Virus record (IMG/VR): IMGVR_UViG_3300045253_000025
Coordinates: 1 to 55,426 of that record
Source of the DNA: a virus
Taxonomy: Duplodnaviria > Caudoviricetes
DNA: 55,426 nucleotides
Reading direction: 5' to 3' (one strand)
Every line of letters starts with the position of its first letter. Position 1 is the first letter of the stretch. A program made the translations under genes and the position numbers. The notes under the pieces are model-generated. The model was given only the letters and a program-made list of their open reading frames with translations. It did no database searches and was not told the origin of the DNA. This document shows positions 6,052 to 26,580 of the stretch, in pieces.

Positions 6052-6338
6052 TTCAACCTCCTAGCGATGAACGCTAATTTCTTCTTGAGCGAGAGATTGG
6101 AGGATGGCCGGACTCCCGCTCTCGTCCCAGCCATCTGAATCGGTTTATGATCTCCGCCTACGATTTTGTGGTCATACCTCCAGCTAGCCAAATGCCTTAA
6201 TCGAAGCGGTAGAGCAGAGAATACTTTTGAGAGCGTAGGTTTCTTTTTGTGACGATGATCATAGATCGTGCGGACTCCCTTGAGTTCTGCAACTGCGCCC
6301 CACCTGCGAGACTTCGAGAATCGTTGGCGAAGGCTCAT
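6048..6338 (-). CDS. Small very basic protein without the N-terminal tag
   Basis: MSLRQRFSKSRRW..., ATGA-coupled to 6335..6553. Confidence 0.6.
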   Translation of the reverse strand: MSLRQRFSKSRRWGAVAELKGVRTIYDHRHKKKPTLSKVFSALPLRLRHLASWRYDHKIVGGDHKPIQMAGTRAGVRPSSNLSLKKKLAFIARRLK

Positions 6339-6553
6339 TTGGCTTTGACAATCTTGAGACTGGGTTTGAACTTGCTTCGCTTTGGCTTGAGCGTTTTTCG
6401 TCCGAGTAAATGCTCTCGGTAATTTTTTGCTCCGTAGAGTCCTCGCATCTGCTTCCATCCAGCGGCTTGAGATTTGACACTAGAACCCATATGTGTGTTG
6501 TAGTTCCGCTGCCCTTGAAGGATGCTATGAAGTTTGCGGGTTGAGTCTTTCAT
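6335..6553 (-). CDS. Small basic tagged-family protein (MKDSTRKLHSIL)
   Basis: 72 aa, degenerate tag. Confidence 0.7.
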   Translation of the reverse strand: MKDSTRKLHSILQGQRNYNTHMGSSVKSQAAGWKQMRGLYGAKNYREHLLGRKTLKPKRSKFKPSLKIVKAK

Positions 6554-6610
6554 CTTTCTTCTCCAGAAAAAACCCGGAGGGTTTCAATAAAGGTTCGGTC
6601 AAAGACCGCT

Positions 6611-6787
6611 TCAGTCGTAGTAATTCGTGAGAATCTGGCGATACTTTTTGCTACCGACTCGCTTCCGTTCTTCTCGTCGATATAAAGCGAGAGTTTTTCT
6701 TCCTGACTTCCCGGCAAAGGTAGTTCCATGCTTGGCTTGTCTTGTCAAGACGTGGAGTAGCTTATGAGTGTTCCGCTTGAGCGTCAT
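6611..6787 (-). CDS. Small basic tagged-family protein (MTLKRNTHKLLHVL)
   Basis: 58 aa by manual translation; ATGA overlap with the portal stop; degenerate tag. Confidence 0.65.
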   Translation of the reverse strand: MTLKRNTHKLLHVLTRQAKHGTTFAGKSGRKTLALYRREERKRVGSKKYRQILTNYYD

Positions 6788-8025
6788 GCGACTTTCCTTT
6801 TCAAACCGATTTGTAATGCTAGTTGTGATCCCGGTTCCGGCTCGTCTGCAACTAACGAAGGCTTCCCGTCCGAAGTCGGAGACATGGCCGGGGGAGCTTC
6901 GCTGGCAGGAATGTCCAAGAGCGAAAAGGGGATGATCTCGTATTGGTCGTCTCCGAAATTCATCTTTGAGCCGATCTTGAAAACGAACTTATCAGCATCT
7001 CCGATCAGCCGGTTGACTTCCTCCTGCAAGATCGAGAAGAAAGCTTCTTGAGCGATGGATCGCCCGTTACCGCCTCCCATCGGGCCTGTCGCTTCAGGAC
7101 GAGCCATCTCAGGCGGGATACCCATCCCCTTGAGTTCTTCGTCGGATAAGAGGTTGCCTAGCTCCATGAGGCTCTCAGGGATCGGCTGGACGGTCGGGGG
7201 GATGACTTCCCATTGACGAGTACCAGCAGCGTCGGTGGTATTGGGCATTGCCCAGCTACCCCCGGTCTTCATCTTATCCAGGATTTCCCGCATCATATCC
7301 TTTGCCTGTCTTATCTCATACTGGCCTGGACCGATCTCGACCTTCTGAGGACCAGGGGGATAATAGCCGCCTCCGCCCTGGAAAGCGTACTTATGGAAGA
7401 ACAGCCTACGGGCATCCCGGTAGCCACCGTCCGTCCAGGCTTCGAGCCAGGGAAGGTATGCCCCCTTCAATCGGCTCTCGCCGTACCAAGGATGGACTTC
7501 CCGGCTATGGACGTGCCAGAAGACTTTCGGAGTCAGGAGTTTGAGCTTAGCAACTCCCTGAGAGCCGTAGCCACGGTTATTACGGATATTCGCTCCGACC
7601 AGCATCCCGTTGACCGTCAGGGCGCGACAGTCAAGGAAGTGCAGGTACTTGAGATCGTCGAAGTCTACCGTCCCTTTGGTCTCGTCCATTTTCCAAAGGA
7701 TTTCACAGCAGGAAGCTCCCCATTCGAGAGCTTTTAATGCTCGGATGGAAGCGTTGCGCCAGAAGCGGGAGACGTTATCGACGAGCCATTGCTTGACCTC
7801 CGGCTGGTTGCATTTGATGTAGAAGCGGGACTTCGCCAAGATCGGGCCTTTGATGAGCCAGAGACCAAAGCGGATCGTCGGATCGGAGAGCATCTCGACG
7901 ATGGTACGGACGGTGAACAAGGGAGCGCGGCGATAGACCTCGTAGGGGTACAAGTAAGCAGCCGGGAGATAGTCACGAGTGACTGGCGGCTGATCGGCCT
8001 GGAAGGGGAGAAGGTTCTGATCCAT
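6784..8025 (-). CDS. Portal protein (Mu gp29/DUF935-like)
   Basis: ALEWGASCCEILW, HPWYGESRL...Y.PW, F..KYA pattern; 413 aa. Confidence 0.8.
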   Translation of the reverse strand: MDQNLLPFQADQPPVTRDYLPAAYLYPYEVYRRAPLFTVRTIVEMLSDPTIRFGLWLIKGPILAKSRFYIKCNQPEVKQWLVDNVSRFWRNASIRALKALEWGASCCEILWKMDETKGTVDFDDLKYLHFLDCRALTVNGMLVGANIRNNRGYGSQGVAKLKLLTPKVFWHVHSREVHPWYGESRLKGAYLPWLEAWTDGGYRDARRLFFHKYAFQGGGGYYPPGPQKVEIGPGQYEIRQAKDMMREILDKMKTGGSWAMPNTTDAAGTRQWEVIPPTVQPIPESLMELGNLLSDEELKGMGIPPEMARPEATGPMGGGNGRSIAQEAFFSILQEEVNRLIGDADKFVFKIGSKMNFGDDQYEIIPFSLLDIPASEAPPAMSPTSDGKPSLVADEPEPGSQLALQIGLKRKVA

Positions 8026-8027
8026 GA

Positions 8028-8264
8028 CTACAATCCAAATTTGTTGCTGAGACGCTGATACTCGGAGCCTGACGGAAGCGATTTGACTCCGCGTCCTCCG
8101 GTCATCGCTCGGCCTGTTCGGATACGAGCAGCAATCATCTTCCGGGTGTATGTCCCCTTCGGATTATTCATCAGCCTAGATGCTCGATTCCCTTTGAGAT
8201 TGAAATGCTCCTTCGCGTATTTCCGAGTTGCTGACTGAACTCGTTTGACGAGAGTCTTGCTCAT
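8028..8264 (-). CDS. Small very basic protein (tag weak or absent)
   Basis: 78 aa, R/K-rich, ATGA-coupled. Confidence 0.65.
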   Translation of the reverse strand: MSKTLVKRVQSATRKYAKEHFNLKGNRASRLMNNPKGTYTRKMIAARIRTGRAMTGGRGVKSLPSGSEYQRLSNKFGL

Positions 8265-8793
8265 TTGGTTTGCTTCGCTCTTAAAAATTCCGCAGCGATC
8301 CGATCCGCCTGATCTTCTGATTCACCGAGAACCAGCATCCTCATTTGCTTGTATTCTAGCTCGGACATCGAATTGATTGAACCGTGATAATAGCGGTGGG
8401 TTAAGCGGATTTGAGGAAGGGATTCCAGCAGCAGGAATTGCTCGATACGGGTTAGCTGGAAGGGGTTGAGTCCATACCAAAAACCGACTTCAAATAGGGA
8501 TCGAATTTTTTTTTAAAGTAGTCGTAGGCGGAGTCGATAGTGAGGATGAACTGCCAAATTTGGGAGACGGATAGATCGACTCCCCCATAGCCGACTTTGA
8601 GCCACTCGTGAGTCTTGGCGGCTCGCTCGACTCGATCTTCTGTCTCCTTATAGAGGCGGTCGAGGAATAGACGGGCTTCGATGACATCGACTGTGATCGG
8701 TTCTTTGCCTTCTCCCAGACCGAACTCGATTAGCATTTCGGGGATCGAGACGGAGAATTTTTCAGGAGCAAGCGTGCTAGCGTTATCAGGCAT
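8261..8793 (-). CDS. Tail assembly chaperone G (8452..8793) with -1 frameshift extension GT to 8261
   Basis: TTT AAA AAA AAA slippery run at 8506-8517; the -1 frame is open (KIRSLFEVGFWYGLNPF...RAKQTK) and ends at the next start codon. Confidence 0.75.
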
Positions 8794-8796
8794 GAT

Positions 8797-10680: not shown

Positions 10681-10692
10681 ATAGCAAAGCGA

Positions 10693-11832
10693 TCAAAATA
10701 CTCCAGGTGGAATCGCTCCTTGAGGATTGAACGTCGAAGGACCGACCGGATTGAATTGCAGGGTATTAGGATTAGGAGTCAGGAGGTTGAGCAGAGCATC
10801 GAAGCCGCCTTTGTCATTCTCATTTACATCGACCAGTTTACCTAAGAGGATCAGAATCTCAGAGAGTCCCCAGGTGAAATAAGCCAGAGCAGCACGGAAG
10901 ACCACTTCCCAAAATTCGGGAGGAAGTTGGGAGAGCAAGCGACCTAGCAGCTTGAGCGGAGCGAGGATGCCCTTGAGAATTTCGATGATCGTCTCGAAGG
11001 CAGGACCGAAGACGTTAACGAAGTCGGCCAGGATTTCTTGAATCTCCTGGAGGATGTCTGTCACCTTCTGCATGATCTGAGCGAGTTCGGGACCGGCAGT
11101 CTCTGCGACGTACTGACCCGTCTGGACTTGAGTGACCTCTCGCTCGGCTAGAGCTTGCTGGATATCGCCGGAGTAAGTCTCCGCAATATCGGTGAGCTTG
11201 GAGAGGGCTTCCCCGGCTGCGACGGCTCCGACGATCAAGGCTCCGAAAGGTCCAGTTGCTTCGACAGCGGCTCCGGCTGCGATGCCTGCTCCGGCTCCCA
11301 GAACGGACGAGCCGGTTGCAGAGCCGACTCCAGCAGCAGCGGCGGTTCCCACGACTTCGGGGGTCAGGAGGCTCTTGAGCTTGGCAAATAAGCCGTCTGG
11401 TTCTTTGGCTTCCTTATTCCCCTTACGCATGATCTTTTCCAGATCATCCATATGCTCCTTGAAGTCTTTAACAGCCTTAGCTTCAGCCTCAAAGTCGGGC
11501 AGAGACCCTAGCGGGTCTTCTGAAGAAGAAGATGAACCGGCTTTGGCTCCGCCGAAGAAGTCGGCGGGAGACATCCGTTCTTGTTCTTCAGGGCTGCTTT
11601 TTTTGTTCTTCTTGCCTCGACCCATCGGATCGGCATTTGCGCCAGCCCAAGGCTCCATAGGCGGAGCAGCGAAGGGACCGTAAGAGCCGGAGGGCTGCTG
11701 GAAGGCAGCTTGCCCCTTGGGATCGAGATGCGGGTAGCGGCGATAGAACCGCTTGGACTCCTCCTCCAGATTGGACGGGCCTTTGTCGCCGGAATCGACT
11801 AACTCAATTTTGAGGCGGGCTTCTTCGGCCAT
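10693..11832 (-). CDS. Putative short tape measure protein
   Basis: Ala/Gly-rich and amphipathic helical segments; follows the tail tube; only 379 aa. Confidence 0.55.
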   Translation of the reverse strand: MAEEARLKIELVDSGDKGPSNLEEESKRFYRRYPHLDPKGQAAFQQPSGSYGPFAAPPMEPWAGANADPMGRGKKNKKSSPEEQERMSPADFFGGAKAGSSSSSEDPLGSLPDFEAEAKAVKDFKEHMDDLEKIMRKGNKEAKEPDGLFAKLKSLLTPEVVGTAAAAGVGSATGSSVLGAGAGIAAGAAVEATGPFGALIVGAVAAGEALSKLTDIAETYSGDIQQALAEREVTQVQTGQYVAETAGPELAQIMQKVTDILQEIQEILADFVNVFGPAFETIIEILKGILAPLKLLGRLLSQLPPEFWEVVFRAALAYFTWGLSEILILLGKLVDVNENDKGGFDALLNLLTPNPNTLQFNPVGPSTFNPQGAIPPGVF

Positions 11833-11847
11833 AGGAGAAGAATCCTC

Positions 11848-12366: not shown

Positions 12367-12369
12367 TGT

Positions 12370-12558
12370 TTACTTTCCAAATTCTTTCGGGAATCGCTTG
12401 TAGGAATTGCGGAGCCATTTTGCGCCCTTGGTTCCTAGATGGGATCGAGTTTGGCGGAGGTCTTTAGCGAATGATTTTCGATCGAAGCCGCGATACTTCG
12501 CGTGATACTCCCTTCGAGCTTTGAGACCTTTTATCAGTCGCTTGGTTCCAGTCTTCAT
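12370..12558 (-). CDS. Small basic tagged-family protein (MKTGTKRLIKGL)
   Basis: 62 aa, canonical tag, ATGA overlap. Confidence 0.85.
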   Translation of the reverse strand: MKTGTKRLIKGLKARREYHAKYRGFDRKSFAKDLRQTRSHLGTKGAKWLRNSYKRFPKEFGK

Positions 12559-12929
12559 TCTTCTTCCTCCGCTTCAGTGTCTTTGATCGTCTGAGAGCAG
12601 TCGTAGCAGGTGCAGGCGACCGGCTCTGCCGTCAGATGCTTAACCTTGGCTCGCTTCCGTCCGCAAGCGATGGAGAACGCTTTATGCGGCTGGAGATTGG
12701 AGCCGTCGATCTCGCCAGCAGGATCGGGTACGAGCAGATGGATGATCTCCAGACGAGTCAGGTGTTCGGTGGACTTACACTTCGGGCATTGGTGGGAATC
12801 AGGAGCGTCGATGTCGAGGAAGAAGCAAGTCTTCCGCCAGTAATCGGCAGCGAGACATTCCGGGGAATCGCAGCGGAACGGTCGGAGACGTTTGCCGGTT
12901 GCTTCGATAGTGGCTTGTTCGGTGGTCAT
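12555..12929 (-). CDS. Cys-rich Zn-binding protein
   Basis: CDSPEC, CPKC, CTCYDC. Confidence 0.65.
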   Translation of the reverse strand: MTTEQATIEATGKRLRPFRCDSPECLAADYWRKTCFFLDIDAPDSHQCPKCKSTEHLTRLEIIHLLVPDPAGEIDGSNLQPHKAFSIACGRKRAKVKHLTAEPVACTCYDCSQTIKDTEAEEEE

Positions 12930-13099
12930 ACTTTTGCAAAGGGAGATCGACCCTCTCGTTTAATCGAGTCTCGATAAGATTTTTTCCCTACTCGGAATTG
13001 AGACTCCCGATGATACCGATTTTGACCCTTGCGATCTCCTTTTCGACGAGATAGCTGCCATCGGAATCCCTTCATCAGCCTTTTCGTTCCGGTTCTCAT
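12926..13099 (-). CDS. Small basic tagged-family protein (MRTGTKRLMKGF)
   Basis: 57 aa by manual translation; ATGA overlaps at both ends. Confidence 0.85.
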   Translation of the reverse strand: MRTGTKRLMKGFRWQLSRRKGDRKGQNRYHRESQFRVGKKSYRDSIKREGRSPFAKV

Positions 13100-13660: not shown

Positions 13661-14404
13661 CTACTTCCCTAACCTCTCGGCAAAGTATTTGACGGTGGAC
13701 TTCCCCGCTTCGACCAGAGCTTCATTGAGCCAAGGGCGGATTCGAGATTGGGGAGGCCAGAAGGGACGCATCTTGTGTTGATACCCGGCATAAGGGACTT
13801 TCGAGCCAATGGAAATTTCGCTCTGACTGACCTCGAAAATCTGATCTTGTGGGAAGGTGTAGCTGACTTCGTTTATCCTGCCAGGGGTCAGGGATTTAAT
13901 CAAGCGGTCGGAGACTCGCATAATATCGACTTTCCGATTGCCCAGGGTCTCCAGCCGGGTTTTGGCTCCCATCGACTTCAGGACTGCCCAGGCGATTTGG
14001 GAGGCTTGAGCTTTGGCTTTGGCTTCTCCGATCTTGGAAGCGAGGCGCTTGAGATTGGAGAAGAAAATCCCCCGCCATAATTTGTCTTCCCCCGGAGTGA
14101 GCAGACCGCGTACCCTCTTGCCAACGATCCCAACTCGCTTGAGTTCGCCCTTAGTGATGGGCCTAGCGGCGATGGTTTCCCGCTTGAGCGGTCTCCAGGA
14201 GTATCCCAGATCGTCGGTTCCTCCTTTGCTCTTGATGAGCCACTGGCGGTAGATTTTCTGAAGAAGAAAGTAGGCTAAGTGAGTGCGGAAGAATTGGCCG
14301 ATTTTGTATTCGTCGGGGAGTCGTCCATCGAGGATGCCGGGGAGCTTGTGCAGGAGGGCTTTGAGTTGACGCTTGGAGCCTCGATATTTTACGGCTGTCT
14401 CCAT
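13661..14404 (-). CDS. Virion morphogenesis protein (Mu gpG-like)
   Basis: W.PL...T, L..SL, IGSKVPYAGYQH..RPF motifs. Confidence 0.7.
   Translation of the reverse strand: METAVKYRGSKRQLKALLHKLPGILDGRLPDEYKIGQFFRTHLAYFLLQKIYRQWLIKSKGGTDDLGYSWRPLKRETIAARPITKGELKRVGIVGKRVRGLLTPGEDKLWRGIFFSNLKRLASKIGEAKAKAQASQIAWAVLKSMGAKTRLETLGNRKVDIMRVSDRLIKSLTPGRINEVSYTFPQDQIFEVSQSEISIGSKVPYAGYQHKMRPFWPPQSRIRPWLNEALVEAGKSTVKYFAERLGK
14255..14269. promoter_or_regulatory. Motif B palindrome TTTCT-N5-AGAAA; exact copies also at 3291, 6555, 19020, 27087, 29682, 30084, 40955, 53206
   Basis: Nine exact copies found by eye, plus near-matches. Confidence 0.7.
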
Positions 14405-14415: not shown

Positions 14416-14934
14416 CTATCGGAAGAGGTTATCGTATCCGAGCCATTGCGGGTCGTTGTCTTGACGGTCGTAAGTTCCACCGACCTGAGTTACAGGCTGG
14501 ACTCTGACCTTAGCCGTCGTGAAGTGATCGTCAATTCTGTAGTTCGAGAGCGAGGGACACATATTGCCACGGTTCGCTAGACCGGGGACTTGCAACTGAC
14601 CGGCTTGGATTCGCTCCAGGATTGCTAGGACTCGCTGATACTCGTCCTCGTACTGGCCTGGATCGCCCCGACGCTTGGAGAGGAAGTAGCAACCGACTTT
14701 CGTTGCCCAGCGGCGGACGATCTTGGAAGCTTTGAGATCGACCGGCTCATACCAGTTTTCCAGGTACAGGTAGATCGTCTGGGAAGCTTCGTCGATTACG
14801 TCTTGCAGGGAATCGGTCTGATCGTCTCCGGTTCCGTCGTCATCCAGCCGGAGATCGACGCCGGTACGAGACCAGACCCGCTCCAATTCGGCGCGTGTCG
14901 TTAAGTCGTAGAGTGTCGGATCGGCGACGGACAT
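14416..14934 (-). CDS. Head-tail adaptor (Mu gp36/DUF1320-like)
   Basis: IDEAS..I..YL...Y, Y.L..RR, Y......LE.I..G pattern. Confidence 0.75.
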   Translation of the reverse strand: MSVADPTLYDLTTRAELERVWSRTGVDLRLDDDGTGDDQTDSLQDVIDEASQTIYLYLENWYEPVDLKASKIVRRWATKVGCYFLSKRRGDPGQYEDEYQRVLAILERIQAGQLQVPGLANRGNMCPSLSNYRIDDHFTTAKVRVQPVTQVGGTYDRQDNDPQWLGYDNLFR

Positions 14935-15110
14935 TATAGCGGCAAGTCTCCATGACTCTTAAGACGTTGTTTCGTTTGTCGTGGTCGTAGCTTTCTCGAC
15001 CCTCGAAGGAATTTTGCTAATACCCGGCGATGAGTTCCGGGATGATATGCGGCTTGGTCTTGTTTCCAATTCTTCAAACCAGCGATTAGCCTAGATGTTC
15101 CTTTTCTCAT
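14934..15110 (-). CDS. Small basic tagged-family protein (MRKGTSRLIAGL)
   Basis: 58 aa from ATG 15110. Confidence 0.85.
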   Translation of the reverse strand: MRKGTSRLIAGLKNWKQDQAAYHPGTHRRVLAKFLRGSRKLRPRQTKQRLKSHGDLPL

Positions 15111-15451: not shown

Positions 15452-15640
15452 TCAATCATCGAGAGCTAGCTTGGCCTGATAATGCGGCTCGATCGAGAGC
15501 TTGGATTGGTAATGCGGTTCAATGGCAAAATGAGACAGGAGGGAGATGCCGGGGGGAGTGGGACCGGCAGACTCGTAACCTTGGGTGATTGGAAACCCGG
15601 ACAGGAAGCCTTGCGTGATGATCGTATCGGAAGGAAGCAT
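15452..15640 (-). CDS. Small hypothetical protein with internal repeats
   Basis: ITQG twice and IEPHYQ twice; preceded by motif A with SD. Confidence 0.6.
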   Translation of the reverse strand: MLPSDTIITQGFLSGFPITQGYESAGPTPPGISLLSHFAIEPHYQSKLSIEPHYQAKLALDD

Positions 15641-15667
15641 ATACCCCTTTGAGTTTTGTGAGAAGTA

Positions 15668-15841
15668 TTATCGGGTAGTTTTCAGGGAACGGACCAGCTT
15701 TCGGTAACGGCCTGCATTTCCTCCTCGACGTTCGGAGCGGTGCATCCTAGAAACCTCTGAACGACTATGACCGATCCCGCCAACATATTTATTGCGGATC
15801 GAGCGAAGATTTTTTATCAGCTTTTTGGTTCCCGATCTCAT
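15668..15841 (-). CDS. Small basic tagged-family protein (MRSGTKKLIKNL)
   Basis: 57 aa by manual translation; ATGA overlap. Confidence 0.85.
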   Translation of the reverse strand: MRSGTKKLIKNLRSIRNKYVGGIGHSRSEVSRMHRSERRGGNAGRYRKLVRSLKTTR

Positions 15842-16782: not shown

Positions 16783-19617
16783 CTATTGCACATTCCAATT
16801 CGTACCGTCCCAAACAAATTCCTTATAATCTCCCGCTGACATATTGACGGTCGTAACTGCTGATGCGTCGAAGATATTGTCGCTTCCAGCGCGAGAAATA
16901 ACCAGCGTGCCGCTGCCAGCGTGCTTCACACCAACCCAAGCTCCTGACGCTCCAGCCGGTAGTGTCCAGGTAGTTCCGCTGCCGGTGTAGACGTAGGGCG
17001 TGTTATTGGTAAGCGTAGCACTAGCAGTATTGATGCGTGAGATTGCGGCGCGAGCAGTGGACAGTGTTCCGCTGGTCGGCAGCGTTACATTGGTCGCACC
17101 CGTCGTTGTTAGCGTAAGAGCGTTCGCGCCGGAAGTCGTAAAGGCTGCTGCCGTCGTTATGTTGCCCCCAAGATCAATCGTCTTGTTGGCGTCGTTCAGC
17201 TTGAAATTCAGCGTGCGCTCGTCGTTATTGCTGGCGTCGGGAAATGCGAGGATGATGTTGAAGCCCGAACTGCAGCTAAACCCGGCAGACCCATCGACTG
17301 AGAAATTACCGCCAATGGCTAAATCACTCGCTACGGTCATTCCGCCATCGGCTGTGACAGCCCCATGCAGTGTAGATGTCCCAGTAACGTAAAGATTGCC
17401 ATCGGTCTTGATTGTGCTTGCGGCGGAGCGGTAGAGGTTGGCCGTAGCATCGCTGTCGGAGAATCGAATTTTGTTCGCTACGATCTCTTGCGCGCCATTG
17501 CCAAGCACGAGCCGGTCGCTGGCGTTGAGTTTTGCCAGAGCGATGTAGCCGTTACCGGCGAAGTTCAACTGTTTGAGAGCATCGCTGTTGTTAAGAGTAT
17601 TGACCAACGGGCCAGGCAAGAAAAACACACCACTCTGGAGCGTAGCATAGGTGCTGTTACCAGCCTCGTTCGTCCATGTGAATTGCGTAGCGGCAAACGT
17701 GCTACTAATAACGCCAGCTTCTGTACAGGACATGCCCAGTGCTCGTCGCTCTACGTTTGATGGGGTACGGAAAATTATGAATGCTTCGTCTTGGAAAACT
17801 CCAGGGCTTGTCTCGTAGTGATTCTCAAGCTGTACCCAAACACCGCTTTTCGTAATGTCCTTACTCGTACCGACATTCGTACCGATCTGTATAACGTGAT
17901 CCCCACGTGATGCCACTACGTTCGTGCCGACCGTTGATGTAATAGTAAATGGGAGTGAGCCGTCGCTGATACTCGTATGACCTTTAAAGAGATCAATTCC
18001 GCTACCGTCAGTAGTTCCGACTGTAATGAGTGAAAGAAAAGATGGACTCGCGGTTGTACGGATATCCTGAATAGCGTTTAGCACGCTACCGCTTGTGCTG
18101 AGGCTTGTTCCGATTGACGTAGTACCAGTTCCTCCATTAGCGGCAGGTAGCGTGCCGGTGACTCCGGTTGTAAGTGGTAAACCAGTACAGCTTGTCAATG
18201 TACCTGAAGATGGCGTCCCAAGAATGGGCGTCACAAGTGTAGGCGATGTAGCGAATACCACAGCACCACTACCCGTCTCGTTCGTAAGCAAAGTGGCTAG
18301 ATTGGCTGAAGATGGAGTTGCTAAAAATGCAGAAGCTCCAGAAGCCAGTCCACTAACGCCTGTACTAATTGGAAGTCCAGTGCAGTTAGTCAATGTGCCG
18401 GAAGAAGGAGTACCTAGAACTGGGGTAGTAAGAGTTGGAGAAGTCAGAGTCTTATTTGTTAGAGTTGCTGTACCGTCAATCGTATCAAAGCCCCCAGTAG
18501 CGTTGACGTTGTTTCCTAGAGCGGTTGCGACTCCTGTACCGAAAGAGGTAATCCCTGTTCCACCATTAGCGACAGGCAGAGTTCCTGTAATAGCAGAAGT
18601 CAACGAGATATTTGTAAGCGTATTGGATGATCCAGAGATTGTCTTACTTGTGAACGTCTGAACGGTAGAAAGATCAGCGATCGTTCCTGACGGGACTGTC
18701 TTTGTTCCCCAGGAGTCGATAGTCGATCCATTAGTAATCCCGTACCCAACAGCAGTCGTCGGGGTCGATCTGACTTGAGACCAAAGAACTCCGATCTGGG
18801 GACCGGGGCCGGAGGAGAAAGTTCCCGTTCGTGAAGGAGACTTCGAGACTTGCTCGTATATCCAGCGGCCTTGCTCCTTCTTCGCTCGATAGCGATAAAT
18901 AAAGCCGTCGCTCAAAACACCTTCGTATAAATCTTTCTCGACTCGAAACCATTGAATCCAGAAAGGCTGCTTAGGAGTAACCGGGTTTTCGACAACCGCC
19001 TCCGGTCTAACGACCGTATTTTCTGGAGAAGAAAGAGAGAACATCTTCTCGGATTCGGCTTGCGAAGCTCCGGTTGGGAATGGACCGATCCGCTTTTCGT
19101 AAGATGCGATCCAATCGGAAGCGATCTCCTGCTGCGCTTGGCGGAGATCGAGATCGCTGGAGCAGACTAGATCATGAAGCTTGTTCTCCAGCTTGTCTTT
19201 GAGCCTTGCTCCATACCGACCTGCATAGGACTGAGGCCAGAGATTCTTAAGATCGTTGGAACCTCCGAGTTCTAACGGGATTAGATGATCGACTTCGTAC
19301 TGAGACCGATCAGACCAAGGAATGCCGTAAGAGGCAAAGACTTTCTTTTTGAGTGATTCGGGGACGTTACGGACGCGAGCGGTATAGCCGGGACGGGAGA
19401 GGTCATCGACGCCAATCGTGGGGAAGTAAGCCCCTGGAGTTTTAGTAGGGTCGGGGAGGACTCCGGGAGTGGTGACGGATCGAGAATCGGTAGCAGGTCG
19501 GGAAACCGGGGACAGAGCAACGGACGATGAATCATTGATCCAACCGCCATCAGGCGCAGGGGAACAGCCTCCAACGAGGAAGATCGAAAGCAGGATTGGC
19601 AGGAGCCAGCGGTTCAT
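16783..19617 (-). CDS. Fusion of lipoprotein signal + HNH-like domain + tail-fibre-like region
   Basis: Lipobox VGGC; EVDHLIPLELGGSNDLKNLWPQ; GTLP.ANGGTG and TSPTL.TP.LGTPSSGTLT.CTGLP repeats. Confidence 0.7.
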   Translation of the reverse strand: MNRWLLPILLSIFLVGGCSPAPDGGWINDSSSVALSPVSRPATDSRSVTTPGVLPDPTKTPGAYFPTIGVDDLSRPGYTARVRNVPESLKKKVFASYGIPWSDRSQYEVDHLIPLELGGSNDLKNLWPQSYAGRYGARLKDKLENKLHDLVCSSDLDLRQAQQEIASDWIASYEKRIGPFPTGASQAESEKMFSLSSPENTVVRPEAVVENPVTPKQPFWIQWFRVEKDLYEGVLSDGFIYRYRAKKEQGRWIYEQVSKSPSRTGTFSSGPGPQIGVLWSQVRSTPTTAVGYGITNGSTIDSWGTKTVPSGTIADLSTVQTFTSKTISGSSNTLTNISLTSAITGTLPVANGGTGITSFGTGVATALGNNVNATGGFDTIDGTATLTNKTLTSPTLTTPVLGTPSSGTLTNCTGLPISTGVSGLASGASAFLATPSSANLATLLTNETGSGAVVFATSPTLVTPILGTPSSGTLTSCTGLPLTTGVTGTLPAANGGTGTTSIGTSLSTSGSVLNAIQDIRTTASPSFLSLITVGTTDGSGIDLFKGHTSISDGSLPFTITSTVGTNVVASRGDHVIQIGTNVGTSKDITKSGVWVQLENHYETSPGVFQDEAFIIFRTPSNVERRALGMSCTEAGVISSTFAATQFTWTNEAGNSTYATLQSGVFFLPGPLVNTLNNSDALKQLNFAGNGYIALAKLNASDRLVLGNGAQEIVANKIRFSDSDATANLYRSAASTIKTDGNLYVTGTSTLHGAVTADGGMTVASDLAIGGNFSVDGSAGFSCSSGFNIILAFPDASNNDERTLNFKLNDANKTIDLGGNITTAAAFTTSGANALTLTTTGATNVTLPTSGTLSTARAAISRINTASATLTNNTPYVYTGSGTTWTLPAGASGAWVGVKHAGSGTLVISRAGSDNIFDASAVTTVNMSAGDYKEFVWDGTNWNVQ

Positions 19618-19907
19618 TTTCTTCTCAAGAAATAGTGACCAACAAAAGTCTCGATTCGAGGTTTGCCTAGCCGTTTTCGCAGATCATTCTCCCAATTCGT
19701 GAGGATGCAATTTGAGAGCGGATCGGTCGTCATTTGAACCAGCAGCGTACCTAACGGAATCCACACGGCGATACTCATCCAGCCATAACCGGGCCAGACG
19801 CTATCCCAAAGTTTCCACACCACAACCGGCATTGCTAAGCCAGTCACAAGGACAGCGATGCAGCCGATGAAATGAAAAACGACCAAAAACATAAGCAGTA
19901 GTTTCAT
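19614..19907 (-). CDS. Membrane protein (DUF2784-like)
   Basis: 2 TM segments; CILTNWENDLR...G...FV.HY. Confidence 0.6.
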   Translation of the reverse strand: MKLLLMFLVVFHFIGCIAVLVTGLAMPVVVWKLWDSVWPGYGWMSIAVWIPLGTLLVQMTTDPLSNCILTNWENDLRKRLGKPRIETFVGHYFLRRK

Positions 19908-19914
19908 ACCCGGT

Positions 19915-20163
19915 TTATTGGAGACGGATCAAAGGATGACCGATCAGAGCCATCAGCAGGCTGATGAGCAGTACCACGACCAGTATGACGAAGATTACGC
20001 GAATGACCTGAAAGGCCAAAGGCGGTCCCCAGCCTTGCTTTTCGATATAGCCGATCAAGAACCAGAGCAAGCCCAACACGACGGCTCCAATCAGCAGCCC
20101 CAGAATCGTTGAGACAATTCCAGCCAAGCTTACGTCGATCACGGCCAGAGAGAGAGTAATCAT
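19915..20163 (-). CDS. Holin-like membrane protein
   Basis: 82 aa with two long hydrophobic segments. Confidence 0.55.
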   Translation of the reverse strand: MITLSLAVIDVSLAGIVSTILGLLIGAVVLGLLWFLIGYIEKQGWGPPLAFQVIRVIFVILVVVLLISLLMALIGHPLIRLQ

Positions 20164-20214
20164 ATTATTTTCCTTTCCAGAAAAATGTACCCGGACGGTA
20201 ATCCGTCAGGGGTG

Positions 20215-20451
20215 TTAGTCGTCGCTGTAGATTTCTTCCCAGCGGTGATTCTTCTTGTAGTCCTTGGAGAAGTCAGTTTCGGGGAACGCTCCGACGTAGG
20301 CCCAATTACGGAGGTACTTGAGTTGGCGATGGTCTCCGCTGATGACTTGCTTGATCTCGAATAACTGAATCGTAGCAGTCACGAGAGAGCAAGCCAGGAA
20401 GACAGCGGTCCCGATGCCGATGCCGAAGCGTGTGTTTTCGTTGATGGTCAT
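20215..20451 (-). CDS. Single-TM small protein
   Basis: N-terminal hydrophobic helix. Confidence 0.55.
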   Translation of the reverse strand: MTINENTRFGIGIGTAVFLACSLVTATIQLFEIKQVISGDHRQLKYLRNWAYVGAFPETDFSKDYKKNHRWEEIYSDD

Positions 20452-20996
20452 TGATGCAACTTTGCTAATTGTACGATCAGACTGGCGAGACCGAGAACGA
20501 CTGAGATAGCAACTCCGATCCAGAGAGCCGTGGTTGCTTGACCTCTTTCTTGTGCTGTGTCCTTGCCAAGCAATGAGCTACGATACTTTTCTAACTCGGC
20601 TACCTTGTTCTTGACTTCCTCCAATCGCTCCGCTTCGGAATTGAATCGGGACTCGACTTCCTGACGCGGCATCGTTGCCTTGTTCTGCTCATCCAGCTTG
20701 CGGGAGAGATCGTTGTGCGTTTGATTATAGGACTTCTGCGCTTCTTCGGCTTTGGTGATCGCTTTCTCGGAGGCGGCAAAGGCAGCGTCGGTAAGTTTCT
20801 GCTGAGCGGCTAACGCAGCGTTGACTGCAACCTCTGCTGATTTAAATTGCTGATCGTATCTGCGATCTCGCTCCTCATAGCGTTTGTCTCGCTCGTCATA
20901 ACGGCGGTCTCGCTCGTCGAGCTTGGTCTCGATGATCTCACGAGTCAGGGCGATCAAACCGTTTTCTCTGCTCGTAAGTTGGGGTTGTTCACTCAT
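20448..20996 (-). CDS. Coiled-coil protein with C-terminal TM anchor
   Basis: Long heptad region and hydrophobic tail. Confidence 0.65.
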   Translation of the reverse strand: MSEQPQLTSRENGLIALTREIIETKLDERDRRYDERDKRYEERDRRYDQQFKSAEVAVNAALAAQQKLTDAAFAASEKAITKAEEAQKSYNQTHNDLSRKLDEQNKATMPRQEVESRFNSEAERLEEVKNKVAELEKYRSSLLGKDTAQERGQATTALWIGVAISVVLGLASLIVQLAKLHQ

Positions 20997-21023: not shown

Positions 21024-21031
21024 AGGTCAAT

Positions 21032-21070: not shown

Positions 21071-21151
21071 CCTCAAGGAGACTCCCGGTGAGCATCAGAC
21101 CGGGATCAGAGATTATTCATAACGGAAGTAGACTCCGCTGGTTTGGTTGCT

Positions 21152-21799: not shown

Positions 21800-21830
21800 A
21801 GGGATACCTGTCTGAGTTTTGTGAGAAGAA

Positions 21831-21950
21831 TTATTTGCGTTTTCGAGGCTTGCGTTTTGGTTTTCCGCCGTAAGCTTCAGGATGGTTTCGACGGGATACC
21901 TTTTCCCAGAAGTCAGCAGAGCTTTTGTTAAGTTTGATGAGGCGAGTCAT
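21831..21950 (-). CDS. 39-aa basic peptide (MTRLIKL...KPKRKPRKRK)
   Basis: TGATG-coupled to the capsid gene stop. Confidence 0.55.
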   Translation of the reverse strand: MTRLIKLNKSSADFWEKVSRRNHPEAYGGKPKRKPRKRK

Positions 21951-23092
21951 CAGTAAATGACCGTGGGGCTGAAGACGCAATTCGGGACGTACAAAGCCGG
22001 GAGGCCGTTGAGGACTGCTTTTAAGTCCCAGCCTGCCGGGTCGATGACCTGAGTCGTCCAGGCGGCGAAGCCGAATCGCTCCGTCCCTTGATCGAGAAGG
22101 TTTTCCATGACAAGCTCGGAGCCGTTCATCCAGGAACACCAATCGAAATCGACGGCGGGCAGGATCACGGCTCGGTTGTCCGGGATGACCTTGATGTTGT
22201 TTCCGGCGTAATCGACGAGCAAGGCGTCGTAGGAGTGGAAGGCCATGTAGGGGATGCCCTTGAATACAACTTCCAAGCCGGTGTCTTGAACGCCATCGGG
22301 ACCACGGAACTCCGTCCGCTCGAAGCGAGACCAGACGGTATTGGCGATGCCAGCAGCTTCGAGGAGTCCGGTGTTTTTGAACAAAGGAGCCATCGTCACG
22401 GAGTTGACCCAGACATCGCGGATCGGTCGTCCAGTAAGAGCTTCCTGAGCCGCGTTCATCTTGAAGAACTGGCCGATAATGTCGGCGGCAGGATCGTTCC
22501 AGGGGCGTTCGATGATCGCAGCGTCAGTTGAATTGACCGTAGCCGCCATCTGGTTCTTGTTGCCTGCTGGAATCTGGAAGTTGACCGTGAAGTTGCCGGA
22601 GCCGGTTTCGACCGGGTTGACATCATCGCCGGAGATCAGGAAGTCATGGGAGCCTAAGAGCATCCGGGAACACATGAACTCACGAGCGTTGACAAACTTC
22701 TGAGCTAGGAAGCGTTCCTGCTTGGTGATGTAGGACTGGCCGGAAGCATCGACGGCTCCCCAATTCTGACCGAGAGGACGAGTACGAAAAACCTTCTCCG
22801 CTAGGATCGGAATCTTCTCATGGAAGCGAGCCATCGTCATGGCGACGTGGCCGATGACCTGCGGAGCGGAGGTTGCCGGGCCGACTGCCGGAGCGCGTCC
22901 TTTTGCCATCGTGCGCGTGCGGTTGAACTGATCGTAACCGGCGACGTGACCGCCAGGGCTTTCGACGTTGCGACCGTCCATCCCCATGCCGAGATAATCC
23001 TGGACGCGGGATTGCGGTTGCTTGATCGTCGAGATGACCCTCGTCACCTGATAAGTCGAGAGCAGTTGTTCGAGGGAGACGTTAGTTGCCAT
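21950..23092 (-). CDS. Major capsid protein (lambda E-like, HK97 fold)
   Basis: 380 aa, REFMCSRML..G and LPALY.PN patterns, follows protease and decoration genes. Confidence 0.8.
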   Translation of the reverse strand: MATNVSLEQLLSTYQVTRVISTIKQPQSRVQDYLGMGMDGRNVESPGGHVAGYDQFNRTRTMAKGRAPAVGPATSAPQVIGHVAMTMARFHEKIPILAEKVFRTRPLGQNWGAVDASGQSYITKQERFLAQKFVNAREFMCSRMLLGSHDFLISGDDVNPVETGSGNFTVNFQIPAGNKNQMAATVNSTDAAIIERPWNDPAADIIGQFFKMNAAQEALTGRPIRDVWVNSVTMAPLFKNTGLLEAAGIANTVWSRFERTEFRGPDGVQDTGLEVVFKGIPYMAFHSYDALLVDYAGNNIKVIPDNRAVILPAVDFDWCSWMNGSELVMENLLDQGTERFGFAAWTTQVIDPAGWDLKAVLNGLPALYVPNCVFSPTVIY

Positions 23093-23125
23093 GATCGGTT
23101 ATCCGGTGAGGGTTAGGTTACTTCG

Positions 23126-23377
23126 TTACTTTCCATCAGGTCGTTTGTCGAGACCTTTTTCCTTCAAAATTGCGGCTACGTCGTCAACGTGCAGCATATC
23201 GCAAATGCATGCGCCAGTATCGTTCGTGATCGGTGCAATACTGCCGTTGCAAGTGTCATTGCCCGGCACAGCACTATGCAAGACACCAAACGAAACAATT
23301 TTTGCTCCGTCGCCGTAGCCACCGAGTTTCACACAGATGTCCCCATTCTTCGCTTCTCGTCCGTTTCTGTAGTGCAT
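23126..23377 (-). CDS. Hypothetical protein (MHYRNGREAKNGD...)
   Basis: 83 aa, inserted between decoration and capsid genes. Confidence 0.65.
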   Translation of the reverse strand: MHYRNGREAKNGDICVKLGGYGDGAKIVSFGVLHSAVPGNDTCNGSIAPITNDTGACICDMLHVDDVAAILKEKGLDKRPDGK

Positions 23378-23419
23378 AATTCTTCTCAGGAAACTCAAAG
23401 GGATGTACTGGATTACGGA

Positions 23420-24415
23420 TTAGCTCACGATCGTCGCAGGCTGGATCAGGGCGTACAGGGCGTTGAGTTGGGCGTTGAGCGTGGCGAAATTGTTGTTGAT
23501 ACCAGGGGCGGTATTGGAAGCAGCGGTATTGCCGATAGCGACCAAGGCGGCTCCTGCCGTACCCGTCGTGTTGTCAGTCAAGGAAGTCAGCAAGGTCGAG
23601 CCTGCAACCCAGGCATGGGAGATGACCAGAGCTTCTCCGGTCGAAAGACCGATGACCTCGAAGTAGGCTCCGATCTTGGCTCCTGTCGTCAGGGCAGCAA
23701 TCGAGTCAGCTGCCTTATCACCGTTGACGACCAGCGTATCGGCGGGAGATGCCGTGAGGGTCATGTTCTGAGCTTCCATGTTGTAGAAGCCAAAACGGAG
23801 ACCATCCTGCATAACTGGTAGAGTGAAGTTGACCGCTCCAACTGTCCCGCGTGTCGTAAACAGCGTGTTGTTGTCTGCGACCATGACCGTGTAGTCGGCA
23901 GTCTTAGCAACCACTCGCTGCCAGCCGCCAAAGCAAGCGCCTTGGACTTGATCGTCGATGATGAAGCGACCCGTCTGAGTGAGCAAAGCTCGGATTAGAT
24001 ACTCATGGGTTGCACCGGAGAGGCCGATCGACGTAGCGCCCGGCTGGAGGATGCCGGTTGCCTTGAGTGTTCCGCCGACGATCGCGTAACCCATAAAGCG
24101 ATCCGCATCGGAGCCAGCGGCTTGCATCTTCTGCGAGTACATCAGCACGCCAGCGATATGCTGGGAGCCGTCCGTCGCGGTCGGAGACCATGTGGTCCAT
24201 TTGCCAGTAGACGTGACTTTGCCTAGCAGCAGACCAGGCCGGAGCAGATCGGTCGGGGTATTCGCGGAGTCGCGGGTTGCTCCGTCCAGGAAAACGTTGA
24301 CGACTTTCTGATCTTCCTTGCGACCCCACCAAACGATTCCCTCAACCGTCTGGAGAGCGGTTCCAATACCGGGAAGTTGCCAGCCACCTGTAAAGCCAAC
24401 GTCGATACCTTGCAT
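23420..24415 (-). CDS. Head decoration protein with C-terminal extension
   Basis: LRPGLLLGKVTSTGKW...ATDGSQ..AGVL, lambda D-like N-terminus. Confidence 0.7.
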   Translation of the reverse strand: MQGIDVGFTGGWQLPGIGTALQTVEGIVWWGRKEDQKVVNVFLDGATRDSANTPTDLLRPGLLLGKVTSTGKWTTWSPTATDGSQHIAGVLMYSQKMQAAGSDADRFMGYAIVGGTLKATGILQPGATSIGLSGATHEYLIRALLTQTGRFIIDDQVQGACFGGWQRVVAKTADYTVMVADNNTLFTTRGTVGAVNFTLPVMQDGLRFGFYNMEAQNMTLTASPADTLVVNGDKAADSIAALTTGAKIGAYFEVIGLSTGEALVISHAWVAGSTLLTSLTDNTTGTAGAALVAIGNTAASNTAPGINNNFATLNAQLNALYALIQPATIVS

Positions 24416-24439
24416 GATCTTATACCTTCAAAGTGAGGT

Positions 24440-24590
24440 TGTACGGTCCTTTGCAGGACTGAACGTGCGACTCGAAAGAGGCGAGCAAACGAAAAAAGGC
24501 CCAATGGTATCGGCGCGCCGTTGAGCCTTGAGTGTGCTGGTTTCGATCCGGGTAATTAAGCCGAACCGTCGCCTCTATCGAGTTGTACGT
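24440..24590 (-). ncRNA. Candidate structured leader RNA of the decoration/capsid genes
   Basis: Long closing stem, two internal hairpins, GNRA hairpin (folded by eye). Confidence 0.45.
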
Positions 24591-24630
24591 TCTTACTTGA
24601 TTGTCAAAACCTCGTGGATTCTTTCAAGAC

Positions 24631-25902
24631 CTACTTTGCCGGAGCATAGCCGGAGTTTGCAAGTTGAGCAGCGACCATATCGTCGAAGCCTTCGTCGCCT
24701 TCGTTCAGGACGGTTGAGCCTTCCAGACCTTCGGGAAGGTCAGCCTCGACGGCGACGGACATTTGAGAGCCGTTGGATTTCTTGCCCTGTCCTTTGCCTT
24801 GGCCGCTGACTTGCTTGAGCAAGCCGTTCTCCGGGAGCGCTTCGAGCGAATCGAGTAGCTCGTCCAGGAGTGTCGGCAAGGGTTTCCCGGATTCGCTGTC
24901 CAGCGAAAGCTGGAAGCCTTCGAGCTTGGGCAGAAGCTTTTTCTTGGCATAGTCGGGAGTGATCCGACCGGAGGCGACGAGCAGCTTGATCCGGTTCGAG
25001 TAGCCGCCTTTGGCTTGAGTGGTCGCCAGATCGAGGAGAGCCTGATTGACTTCGGGCATGAGATTACCTTCGGTATCGGTAAGGGACATTGCGATCGGTG
25101 TTGGAAGCTCTTTAACTTTCGTATCGTTGGTTCCGTCTCCCTGATTCTGCCCCATGATGGCAATACATGCAATACAGACCCGCTCCAGGAAATTATCCCC
25201 GGTCGTATCGTCGGGGAGATCGAGCGGAGGAGTCATCTTGCGGAGATAGGCCAGAGCATCCTTGACGGCATAGGCTCCCCTAACCCCTTCGTCCCGTTGA
25301 GCATTGGGATCAGAACCTTCCTCGACGGTCTTCTTCTTGCCACCTCCCTGCTCTGATTGCTCAAGCTCATCGTTCGCCAATCCGAGAAGAACGTCGTCGG
25401 AGACTTCGACTCCCAGCGGAGCCATGTAGAGCGAAAGAGCGATTGCGGACTGATCGGCTTCGACTTTAGGAGTGAAGTTTAATTGACCAGCCTGGACCGG
25501 ATGGACGACGGCAGCGATATGGACCGGGACATCTTTCCATTCCCGGCCAGAGCCATCAGTCCACTTCGGTTTGATGAACGGCGAGACTTCGCGGACAGTT
25601 GCGCCCAGCTTCTCCGCATCGGCGGCTATAGGGACATCGACTTCGCCGTAGAGACACTGATCGAGCGGATCGACGAAGAACTTATCCCAAAAGCCCGCGT
25701 TATTTTGCGGGTTGAACTCGGTAGGTGTGGCCCCATCGTGACCCCAGGGAAGCGGAATCTTGATTCCAGCAGCGATCATCTCCGTCAGCGTATCGCCTTG
25801 CTTCTTGATCCGCTCCGGGGTGAAGACCTCAATCTTCCGCTTCTTATCAGGAGTGGTAGCGAGGACGCGACCAGGGCGGAGAATTTGCTTGATGAATCGC
25901 AT
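24631..25902 (-). CDS. Prohead protease/scaffold (Mu gpI-like)
   Basis: PLPWGH, NAGFW, EVSP, HIAAV.HPV motifs followed by a helical scaffold-like tail. Confidence 0.8.
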   Translation of the reverse strand: MRFIKQILRPGRVLATTPDKKRKIEVFTPERIKKQGDTLTEMIAAGIKIPLPWGHDGATPTEFNPQNNAGFWDKFFVDPLDQCLYGEVDVPIAADAEKLGATVREVSPFIKPKWTDGSGREWKDVPVHIAAVVHPVQAGQLNFTPKVEADQSAIALSLYMAPLGVEVSDDVLLGLANDELEQSEQGGGKKKTVEEGSDPNAQRDEGVRGAYAVKDALAYLRKMTPPLDLPDDTTGDNFLERVCIACIAIMGQNQGDGTNDTKVKELPTPIAMSLTDTEGNLMPEVNQALLDLATTQAKGGYSNRIKLLVASGRITPDYAKKKLLPKLEGFQLSLDSESGKPLPTLLDELLDSLEALPENGLLKQVSGQGKGQGKKSNGSQMSVAVEADLPEGLEGSTVLNEGDEGFDDMVAAQLANSGYAPAK

Positions 25903-25905
25903 TGG

Positions 25906-26070
25906 TTATTTACTATTGACGAGCGGAGAATACTGCCGCTTAATACCACGACGGATCGAAGCTCTGCCTAATGGATTGTTTCGGTAGTAGCTATTGAGCC
26001 AGCCCTTATCCCAATGCTGCCTCGCTTTGCGAAAACCTCGCATCAGCTTTTTTGTTCCCGCTCGCATCAT
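25906..26070 (-). CDS. Small basic tagged-family protein (MMRAGTKKLMRGF)
   Basis: 54 aa by manual translation; TAATG coupling. Confidence 0.85.
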   Translation of the reverse strand: MMRAGTKKLMRGFRKARQHWDKGWLNSYYRNNPLGRASIRRGIKRQYSPLVNSK

Positions 26071-26249
26071 TACTTTCCAGTCTTGTAGCTCTTGAGTTCT
26101 TTTCGAGCGAACTGCTTTAGCTTGGTTCGATGGGCTTTCCCGTAACCTGTCGCTCTCGCGTACTTGTGCGAGTTGAGAGCATCCTGACGACCAAAAGCGA
26201 GACGTGAATGTCTCAATGCCTGCATCAGTCGAACAGTTCCACGTTTCAT
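26070..26249 (-). CDS. Small basic tagged-family protein (MKRGTVRLMQAL)
   Basis: 59 aa by manual translation; TGATG coupling. Confidence 0.85.
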   Translation of the reverse strand: MKRGTVRLMQALRHSRLAFGRQDALNSHKYARATGYGKAHRTKLKQFARKELKSYKTGK

Positions 26250-26413
26250 CAGAAGTTCCGTTTGATCCGCTCTCGAAGGAGTTTTGAGCCGTGAGTCTTC
26301 TTCAGGAATTTAAGGTATCGGCCTTGATCTTTCCAGCCTCCGCCTTCTCTTACGGAACGGCTGAATCTCCGTCTAGCAAACGATCCGATCAGTTGTCGCG
26401 TGGAGCCTTTCAT
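26249..26413 (-). CDS. Small basic tagged-family protein (MKGSTRQLIGSF)
   Basis: 54 aa by manual translation; ATGA coupling. Confidence 0.8.
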   Translation of the reverse strand: MKGSTRQLIGSFARRRFSRSVREGGGWKDQGRYLKFLKKTHGSKLLRERIKRNF

Positions 26414-26580
26414 CCCGAATAGTAATGCTGCTTGACTTTCTCCCGCCGTTCGCTGGCTTGAGTTCGGCCCTTCGCTCGAATCCCTTTCTCACGCTTCGCC
26501 AAGTCAGAACGATTCCAGTGACCGAACTTCCTTTTTCGATTACGAAAAGAAGCAATCAGTCGCTTGGTTCCGTATTTCAT
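26410..26580 (-). CDS. Small basic tagged-family protein (MKYGTKRLIASF)
   Basis: 56 aa by manual translation. Confidence 0.85.
   Translation of the reverse strand: MKYGTKRLIASFRNRKRKFGHWNRSDLAKREKGIRAKGRTQASERREKVKQHYYSG

Follow-up and report, generated by a model that had tools for sequence, protein, structure and literature searches.

Ten small, strongly basic proteins encoded among the head and tail genes of an uncultured tailed phage very probably form one two-motif family

The window analysed here is the whole stretch of 55,426 nucleotides of the IMG/VR record IMGVR_UViG_3300045253_000025, a tailed virus (Duplodnaviria; Caudoviricetes) from soil. The question raised by this locus is what is encoded by ten very small open reading frames (ORFs) on its minus strand, which share an N-terminal tag and are threaded through the genes for the head and the tail. 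In the original prediction, made from the letters alone, they were read as an address tag carried by variable cargo that could not be aligned after the tag. We found that the ten ORFs very probably represent a real protein family with a two-motif architecture and a predicted three-helix fold over the full length of each product. For its role, we tentatively favour virion-internal polycations associated with the phage DNA, a reading which is possible and held well short of confidence.

All ten ORFs were present on the minus strand as predicted, with lengths of 53-72 aa, and are numbered here as follows:

26410..26580, minus strand: member 1, 56 aa, net charge +15, profile E 8.8e-18; its start lies 23 nt past the stop of ORF 26604-26771.
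26249..26413, minus strand: member 2, 54 aa, net +14; its start and the member 1 stop overlap as ATGA.
26070..26249, minus strand: member 3, 59 aa, net +15; its start and the member 2 stop share 1 nt.
25906..26070, minus strand: member 4, 54 aa if its first Met is used and 53 aa if the second one (26067) is, net +14; the tag begins at 26067, the start overlaps with the member 3 stop, and the stop lies 3 nt before the start of a predicted protease-scaffold gene.
15668..15841, minus strand: member 5, 57 aa, net +16; ATGA overlap with the upstream 191-aa ORF, and a repeated promoter- or leader-like motif (15638-15671) comes next.
14934..15110, minus strand: member 6, 58 aa, net +14; it starts 2 nt past the upstream stop, and at its end it overlaps the start codon of the head-tail adaptor gene.
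12926..13099, minus strand: member 7, 57 aa, net +16; ATGA overlap at both ends; this sequence was used for AlphaFold2.
12370..12558, minus strand: member 8, 62 aa, net +17, best profile match (E 1.3e-21); ATGA overlap with the upstream 124-aa Cys-rich ORF.
6335..6553, minus strand: member 9, 72 aa with an extra Lys-rich tail, net +17; a GGAG-type ribosome-binding site lies upstream, and the stop overlaps the ATG at 6338 of another basic ORF.
6611..6787, minus strand: member 10, 58 aa, net +13, with the tag shifted by two residues; ATGA overlap with the portal stop.

Members 1-4 form a tandem run directly upstream of the predicted protease-scaffold gene. In 7/10 members the start codon shares bases with the preceding stop (ATGA, TGATG or TAATG), in agreement with the predicted translational coupling of most of them, and the remaining gaps are 2, 23 and 57 nt. 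Shine-Dalgarno-like GGAG/GAGG sites were found 5' of members 5-9. The minus strand carries nearly all late genes, from about 27019 down to 3643, and all ten family genes lie inside this head and tail run, with capsid, decoration, portal and adaptor genes in their context, as had been claimed.

In a six-frame scan of the genome, the core motif of the tag was found 11 times, with ten sites on the minus strand and one unrelated site on the plus strand. All minus-strand sites lie 2-5 residues past a Met and 50-69 codons before a stop. With a motif expression that was fitted after the fact, the Met-anchored motif was observed 11 times (the two Mets of member 4 count twice) against a mean of 0.04 and a maximum of 2 in 200 mononucleotide shuffles, and the unanchored motif 11 times against a mean of 1.13 and a maximum of 5. 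The tag is thus found far more often than by chance. When the genome was searched with a profile of the ten members, exactly ten places were recovered, with E values from 1e-15 to 1e-21 over model positions 1-55. A hidden Markov model (HMM) of the tag only (first 16 columns), run against all stop-to-stop frames, gave exactly 10 matches at E <= 5e-4, and the next had E = 0.24. Within this genome the tag is confined to the N-termini of small basic late genes, and in the same frames no larger or different protein carrying it was found.

It could be argued that the ten frames are not genes, and that they stand open by chance over a repeated regulatory element of DNA or RNA. The codons of the tag give this some ground: Gly is encoded by GGA in 7/7 Gly-bearing copies, against 32% GGA genome-wide, and Leu is CTG in 7/10 copies. 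On the other side, all ten frames are open over 53-72 codons, nucleotide identity within the tag is only 62-77%, and Thr is encoded by ACC, ACG, ACT and ACA, all in use, with Lys, Arg and Leu codons varying too. The copies are not a repeated DNA cassette, because the DNA upstream of the ATGs fails to align between them. No Rfam family was matched in the window. The Thr codon had been brought forward as a sign of selection on the protein; its variation was borne out, while the uniform Gly codon may reflect some other constraint. The strongest evidence of protein-level selection comes from eight homologs outside the window, which all carry both protein motifs in the same order and with the same spacing. 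That these frames are not genes is close to refuted.

The claim that the sequences are unalignable after the tag did not hold, since MAFFT and HMMER align all ten proteins from end to end. The N-terminal motif, M-[KR]-x-[GS]-T-[KR]-x-L-[IM]-x-G-[LF]-[KR], is the best-conserved part. A second, C-terminal motif, h-G-x-K-x-x-R-x-x-h-K (h, hydrophobic), is common to all ten members and follows about 35-40 residues past the tag. Its detailed form is hydrophobic-G-[S/P/x]-K-x-[Y/F/H]-R-x-x-[I/V/L]-K, with the Arg present in at least 90% of 22 sequences. Pairwise identity among the ten paralogs is 13-36%. All members contain 15-21 Lys+Arg and no Cys, with a net charge of +13 to +17 and a pI of 11.1-12.0, so that their predicted strong basicity was confirmed. 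The AlphaFold2 model of member 7, built from the 22-sequence alignment, has a pLDDT of 86.9 and a pTM of 0.68, with helices at residues 3-18, 23-37 and 39-49; the tag forms helix 1, and helices 2 and 3 are separated at the conserved Gly38. According to this confident model, each product would be a single compact unit of about 55 aa with a three-helix fold. Because of the second motif, the uniform length and the position of the tag as helix 1, we regard the ten as one full-length family and not as a tag on variable cargo.

Two readings of the C-terminal motif were tried and rejected. A helix-turn-helix was given up since no Pfam helix-turn-helix family matched and the hydrophobic spacing around the Gly departs from the classical pattern. 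A resemblance to the N-terminal extension of bL20 was dropped in view of the lack of a Pfam match.

The original model, in which a T4-type capsid-targeting tag would load unrelated cargo into the capsid and be released by the prohead protease, can be judged on these data. T4 internal proteins enter at prohead assembly through an N-terminal sequence of about 10 aa, a removable tag able to carry virtually any protein, which is taken off by the head maturation protease (PMC7697877). IPI, IPII and IPIII of T4 resemble the present family in being small late proteins with a common N-terminal sequence. A head maturation protease is involved in T4, and a gene for a predicted assemblin-fold maturation protease lies next door here, which, together with the high conservation of the N-terminal motif, speaks for an address tag. 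Unlike the T4 tag, a short sequence on otherwise unrelated proteins, the tag of this family is predicted to be helix 1 of a 55-aa unit that is homologous throughout. The supposed cargo is homologous across the members and in the outside homologs, which keep both motifs, no protein of the genome that is larger or of another kind bears the tag, and no conserved cleavage-type motif was found past the tag in the alignment. Homology to known T4 internal proteins was found neither in Pfam and PHROGs, where they would be represented, nor among PDB sequences. An address tag on variable cargo is improbable.

To place the family, the ten members were compared with Pfam and PHROGs at E <= 1, which gave only scattered sub-threshold noise, and a profile search of PDB sequences gave 0 matches. 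A Foldseek search with the three-helix model gave 0 matches in PDB and, in BFVD, only matches at E about 7; in the ESM Atlas the best feature score was 0.76 and the structure matches were below the bar, and this result was rejected as uninformative. An exhaustive HMMER search of 1.84e9 (1.84 billion) representative proteins gave 12 matches at E <= 1e-3, which were three window proteins, the eight outside proteins (54-82 aa) and one repetitive protein of 1802 aa, which was judged spurious as it had no matched stretch. In a word-indexed search of 5.8e9 proteins, the family profile recovered the window's own proteins only, and an enlarged profile added P0048-P0051. Several members resemble an outside homolog more than they resemble their siblings (among them member 8 and P0048, 41%; member 3 and P0042, 39%; member 7 and P0044, 38%), and on this comparison the paralogs are old; the sequences are too short to support a tree.

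Pattern searches were also performed. The peptide pattern of the N-terminal motif gave 15 matches in IMG/VR, none confirmed as a member. A degenerate DNA pattern of the tag gave 3 loci and 0 members in IMG/VR, 49 loci and 0 with the C-terminal motif in metagenome contigs, and 26 loci and 0 members in GTDB genomes. At six of the metagenome and genome loci (L065, L077, L079, L096, L103 and L121), MK-x-GTKRLI-x-GL starts unrelated proteins and is followed by a hydrophobic segment; judged from these sequences, the tag-like words there are the charged n-region of a signal anchor. Because the same words begin unrelated signal-anchored proteins, the tag alone is not diagnostic of the family. No such family in tailed phages was found described in open-access text. 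As the original prediction had suspected, the family is, by the searches of Pfam, PHROGs, PDB sequences and Foldseek models, previously undescribed. Since most of the genes lie below the usual gene-calling cut-offs, and only 3/10 window genes exist as called proteins in large protein collections, such families are systematically missed in phage annotation.

The size and charge of the products also recall the small basic ribosomal proteins bL34, bL35, bL36 and bS21; unlike those, the family has no match in Pfam (E <= 1) or PDB sequences. Some small basic ribosomal proteins are encoded by phages. The products could be binders of RNA or DNA that act in the infected cell and are not packaged, either binding mRNA or ribosomes to favour late translation, or compacting the host nucleoid or the replicated phage DNA before packaging. 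Small, helical proteins of pI 11-12 are typical of nucleic-acid or ribosome binders, late co-expression suits any late cytoplasmic role, and a conserved fold with conserved motifs is more to be expected of proteins that bind at a specific site on RNA or DNA than of counter-ions. No ribosomal-protein or RNA-binding family was matched in the Pfam scan of the ten members at E <= 1, and no PDB sequence either; in addition, the placement in the head module (beside the protease-scaffold gene or after the capsid gene) recurs in relatives, which is unusual for regulators. We consider such infected-cell binders rather unlikely.

The gene neighbourhood provides the next line of evidence. The following genes were identified around and beyond the family:

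6784..8025, minus strand: portal protein, Mu-type (phrog_113 E 3e-10; PF06074 E 1.8e-5).
10693-11832: tape-measure-like protein.
14416..14934, minus strand: head-tail adaptor (phrog_195 E 1.6e-8).
21950..23092, minus strand: major capsid protein, lambda-E-type (PF03864 E 1.3e-13; phrog_29 E 6.6e-15).
23420..24415, minus strand: head decoration protein, gpD-type (PF02924 E 3.3e-8; phrog_3583).
24631..25902, minus strand: predicted 423-aa protease-scaffold fusion, net -18, with an N-domain (residues 1-145) followed by a helical scaffold-like region.
31675-33162: large terminase.
49828-51765: family A DNA polymerase.

The product of 24631-25902 had been taken as the scaffold. A scaffold-like region is indeed present, and the N-domain is probably, according to its model, an assemblin-fold protease instead. 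Homologs of this product were found in 46/53 related loci, and an alignment of 30 sequences shows no variation at His55, Ser107 and His128. AlphaFold2 gave a beta-rich N-domain (1-145) with pLDDT mostly > 90, then helices split by low-confidence linkers. The top Foldseek PDB matches of the N-domain are four herpesvirus proteases (KSHV 5ur3_A, 4p2t, VZV 1vzv and HCMV), of which the best, 5ur3_A, has an E value of only 2.7e-3, a probability of 0.99 and a target-normalised TM of 0.40; the product has no Pfam, PHROG or PDB-sequence match. With moderate confidence, we regard 24631-25902 as a predicted assemblin-fold prohead protease fused to a scaffold, with the His/Ser/His residues as candidate catalytic residues, and this neighbouring "scaffold" is re-annotated accordingly as a predicted protease-scaffold fusion. 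Conserved A-M-S, L-S-L and M-S-V motifs in the linker may be self-cleavage sites. A predicted complex of the protease-scaffold with the family scored 0.01, with controls not folded, which weighs on neither side of the question of binding.

The late region has a bimodal charge distribution, with structural proteins on the acidic or neutral side and 15 strongly basic products. The net charges of late neighbours are -18 for the protease-scaffold, -8 for the adaptor, -8 for a 185-aa protein, -17 for the tape-measure-like protein, -1 for the portal and 0 for the 191-aa protein. One may thus think of assembly cofactors, each paralog transiently neutralising or chaperoning an acidic partner (protease-scaffold, adaptor or tape measure), often encoded alongside, and being absent from the mature particle. 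The many acidic neighbours, the start/stop coupling of 7/10 members to a structural gene and the presence of ten diverged paralogs would suit such partner-specific roles, while the portal and the 191-aa protein are neutral, four members stand in one tandem run instead of one per partner, and 0-2 copies suffice in relatives. A role as assembly cofactors is unlikely.

The membrane-protein genes run together at 19614-20996. This bears on a further suggestion, that the products are membrane-active cationic peptides for lysis or entry. In phage phiKT, a cationic lysis peptide that disrupts the outer membrane has reportedly been described, and the family is similar to it in size and charge. The ten copies are spread over head and tail genes, outside the membrane-protein run, and the predicted structure is a packed three-helix unit and not a single amphipathic helix; lysis or entry peptides are very improbable.

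We return to the reading that we tentatively favour, namely virion-internal polycations associated with DNA. Here, the small proteins would bind nucleic acid, and would be produced during head assembly in stoichiometric amounts, comparable to structural proteins. They would join the acidic protease-scaffold core in the procapsid, and once the core is processed and DNA enters, they would stay on the DNA, neutralise part of its charge, and may be co-ejected with it. In function, the family would then resemble the T4 internal proteins or the core proteins of eukaryotic double-stranded DNA viruses. The defined fold and the conserved helix 1 would serve for recruitment or for a specific mode of DNA contact. 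By arithmetic, the ten members sum to +151 charges per set, and about 70 sets would match about one tenth of the 110,852 phosphates.

A known parallel is found in eukaryotic double-stranded DNA viruses, whose protamine-like proteins are small (<15 kDa), very basic late products, and condense and encapsidate viral DNA (PMC6163548). The family matches protamine-like or core proteins such as baculovirus P6.9 in size (about 6-8 kDa), high Lys+Arg content and charge, although its genes are those of a tailed phage. Protamine-like proteins have low-complexity Arg/Lys tracts, whereas the family has two specific motifs, a confident predicted three-helix fold and ten diverged paralogs. No homology between the family and the protamine-like or core proteins of eukaryotic double-stranded DNA viruses was found.

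As a best guess, capsid-loaded basic proteins are supported circumstantially by the adjacent acidic protease-scaffold and by polycationic genes at the same positions in relatives. Homologs of the capsid protein were found at 29-63% identity, and the relatives used here are 53 IMG/VR loci whose capsid protein is 29-52% identical to that of the window. A profile search in all frames of the 53 loci recovered family members only in L001, L014 and L025/L027. Taken as whole records, five of the loci have 1, 1, 2, 1 and 0 copies, and one of these records is a complete 52,982-bp genome with a single copy; because these related records hold 0-2 copies, the ten copies of the window represent an expansion. 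In L001 the single member adjoins the protease-scaffold gene, as member 4 does in the window.

Relatives often carry other small, strongly basic ORFs at two places in the head module. In L014 six of them follow the capsid gene and precede the next large gene, and in L033 seven stand in the interval from the capsid gene to the adaptor homolog. The start of the protease-scaffold gene is adjoined by an ORF of 54-80 aa with a net charge of +14 to +19 in 12/47 loci, the window counted, some of the 12 being near-duplicates of each other, and the basic ORFs at this position fall into at least 5 BLAST-unrelated groups. Other polycationic ORFs of the clade (8028-8264/L033; L005/L006/L010; L009/L016/L017/L037/L044; L026) are like the family in size, charge, strand and head-module positions, but have no detectable sequence relation to it and form separate BLAST clusters. 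Across 54 sequences, 658 distinct small coding-strand ORFs were found between large ORFs, 102 with a net charge of at least +10 and 58 of -5 or below, and 16/54 sequences have at least three strongly basic ones; these numbers are indicative only. Three further searches for relatives gave nothing: capsid peptide patterns in IMG/VR found no close relatives (the 53 loci were found by capsid alignment), capsid alignment found no prophage relatives in GTDB genomes, and GenBank phages gave no capsid match at E <= 1e-5 and no member 8 match at E <= 1.

Several points weigh against virion-internal polycations. The ORF beside the protease-scaffold gene is non-basic in 15/47 loci, no ORF ends there in 19/47, and 1 was not assessable. 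The counts of small ORFs in relatives come from a crude ORF heuristic, which takes in spurious frames. The phage is uncultured, and virion presence and DNA association are predictions. A simple counter-ion would need less constraint than is seen here, with a defined fold and an invariant Thr and Leu, and paralogs that are only 13-36% identical suggest specialised partners and not a bulk role. Only eight outside homologs among 1.84e9 representatives make a general packaging need not obvious. The GGA codon in 7/7 copies and the preference of the family for A-ending codons may reflect some constraint at the level of nucleotides or translation initiation. No structural relative pointing to DNA binding was found among PDB sequences or by Foldseek in PDB and BFVD.

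In the textbook picture, the DNA inside tailed-phage heads is essentially naked, and its charge is neutralised by small ions and polyamines. It is possible but doubtful that this uncultured tailed-phage clade packages its DNA with dedicated polycations, as a protein-coated chromosome, with the polycations recruited by the acidic protease-scaffold core and with one three-helix protein expanded in the window to ten specialised paralogs. If true, such a protein-coated phage chromosome would break the naked-DNA picture, and would bear on the neutralisation of packaged DNA, on ejection pressure and on the protection of the incoming genome from host defences. Should these proteins accompany the DNA, they would make up a new class of phage chromatin or internal proteins that is defined by sequence, and the 55-aa unit would be a compact DNA-binding module.

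Besides the ten members, four other small basic ORFs are present in the late region of the window:

26604..26771, minus strand: 55 aa, net +12, not of the family (no profile match).
21831..21950, minus strand: 39 aa, net +11; its start overlaps the capsid gene stop.
8028..8264, minus strand: a second small basic family, 78 aa, net +17, with the N-terminus MSK-x-VKRVQS.
6048..6338, minus strand: one more basic ORF, net +21 and 96 aa, joined to member 9 by an ATGA overlap.

The product of 8028-8264 is 39% identical (E 4e-5) to L033 11985-12230, from a distant relative, and hhalign of the family against this product gave a probability of 0.1, which is taken as unrelated. A larger basic product, unusual in the structural module, is the late 247-aa protein of ORF 13661-14404 (minus strand), with net +27 and pI 10.4; no match was found for it in Pfam or PHROG.

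An intergenic motif of 27-34 nt, ATAATTCTTCTCA-n-AAACTCA-n-n-GGG(G), is repeated in the window and ends a few bases 5' of a start codon:

5752-5785, 15638-15671, 21801-21834, 29920-29953, 39184-39217 and 49574-49607: ATAATTCTTCTCA repeated motif, minus-strand sense.
2803-2829, 23376-23402 and 29806-29832: ATAATTCTTCTCA repeated motif, plus-strand sense.

The motif is probably a phage promoter or a leader including the ribosome-binding site, and it probably divides the late region into several units. The copy at 23376-23402 is oriented opposite to the head genes around it, and the only ORF after it is 6 codons long; for these reasons it may drive an antisense transcript.

Concerning the remainder of the genome, the record is a complete virus of 55,426 bp with direct terminal repeats and a CheckV completeness estimate of 100%. 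An exact 127-bp direct terminal repeat (1-127 = 55300-55426) was seen directly in the sequence, and is consistent with packaging of fixed-length and not headful type. A search of sequencing runs gave one DNA run, available as contigs and possibly from the source sample, and none of RNA. No tRNAs were found in the window. ORF 16783-19617 (minus strand) encodes a 944-aa fibre-like protein with a lipoprotein-type N-terminus (…LVGGCSP…); it has no Pfam or PHROG match, and contains the segment DHLIPLELGGSNDLKNLWPQ, which we take to resemble an HNH-type nuclease motif. Two ORFs, 40980-42053 and 42050-43996 (minus strand), show weak similarity to PSCyt1 (planctomycete cytochrome c; E 6e-4, below its cut-off) and a GYF_2 domain, which together give a faint hint of a planctomycete host. 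Near the left end, ORF 485-1099 (minus strand, 204 aa) contains about 22 tandem 9-nt units at 509-794, which encode an Ala-Ala-x repeat (AAYAAYAAVAAYAADAAV...).

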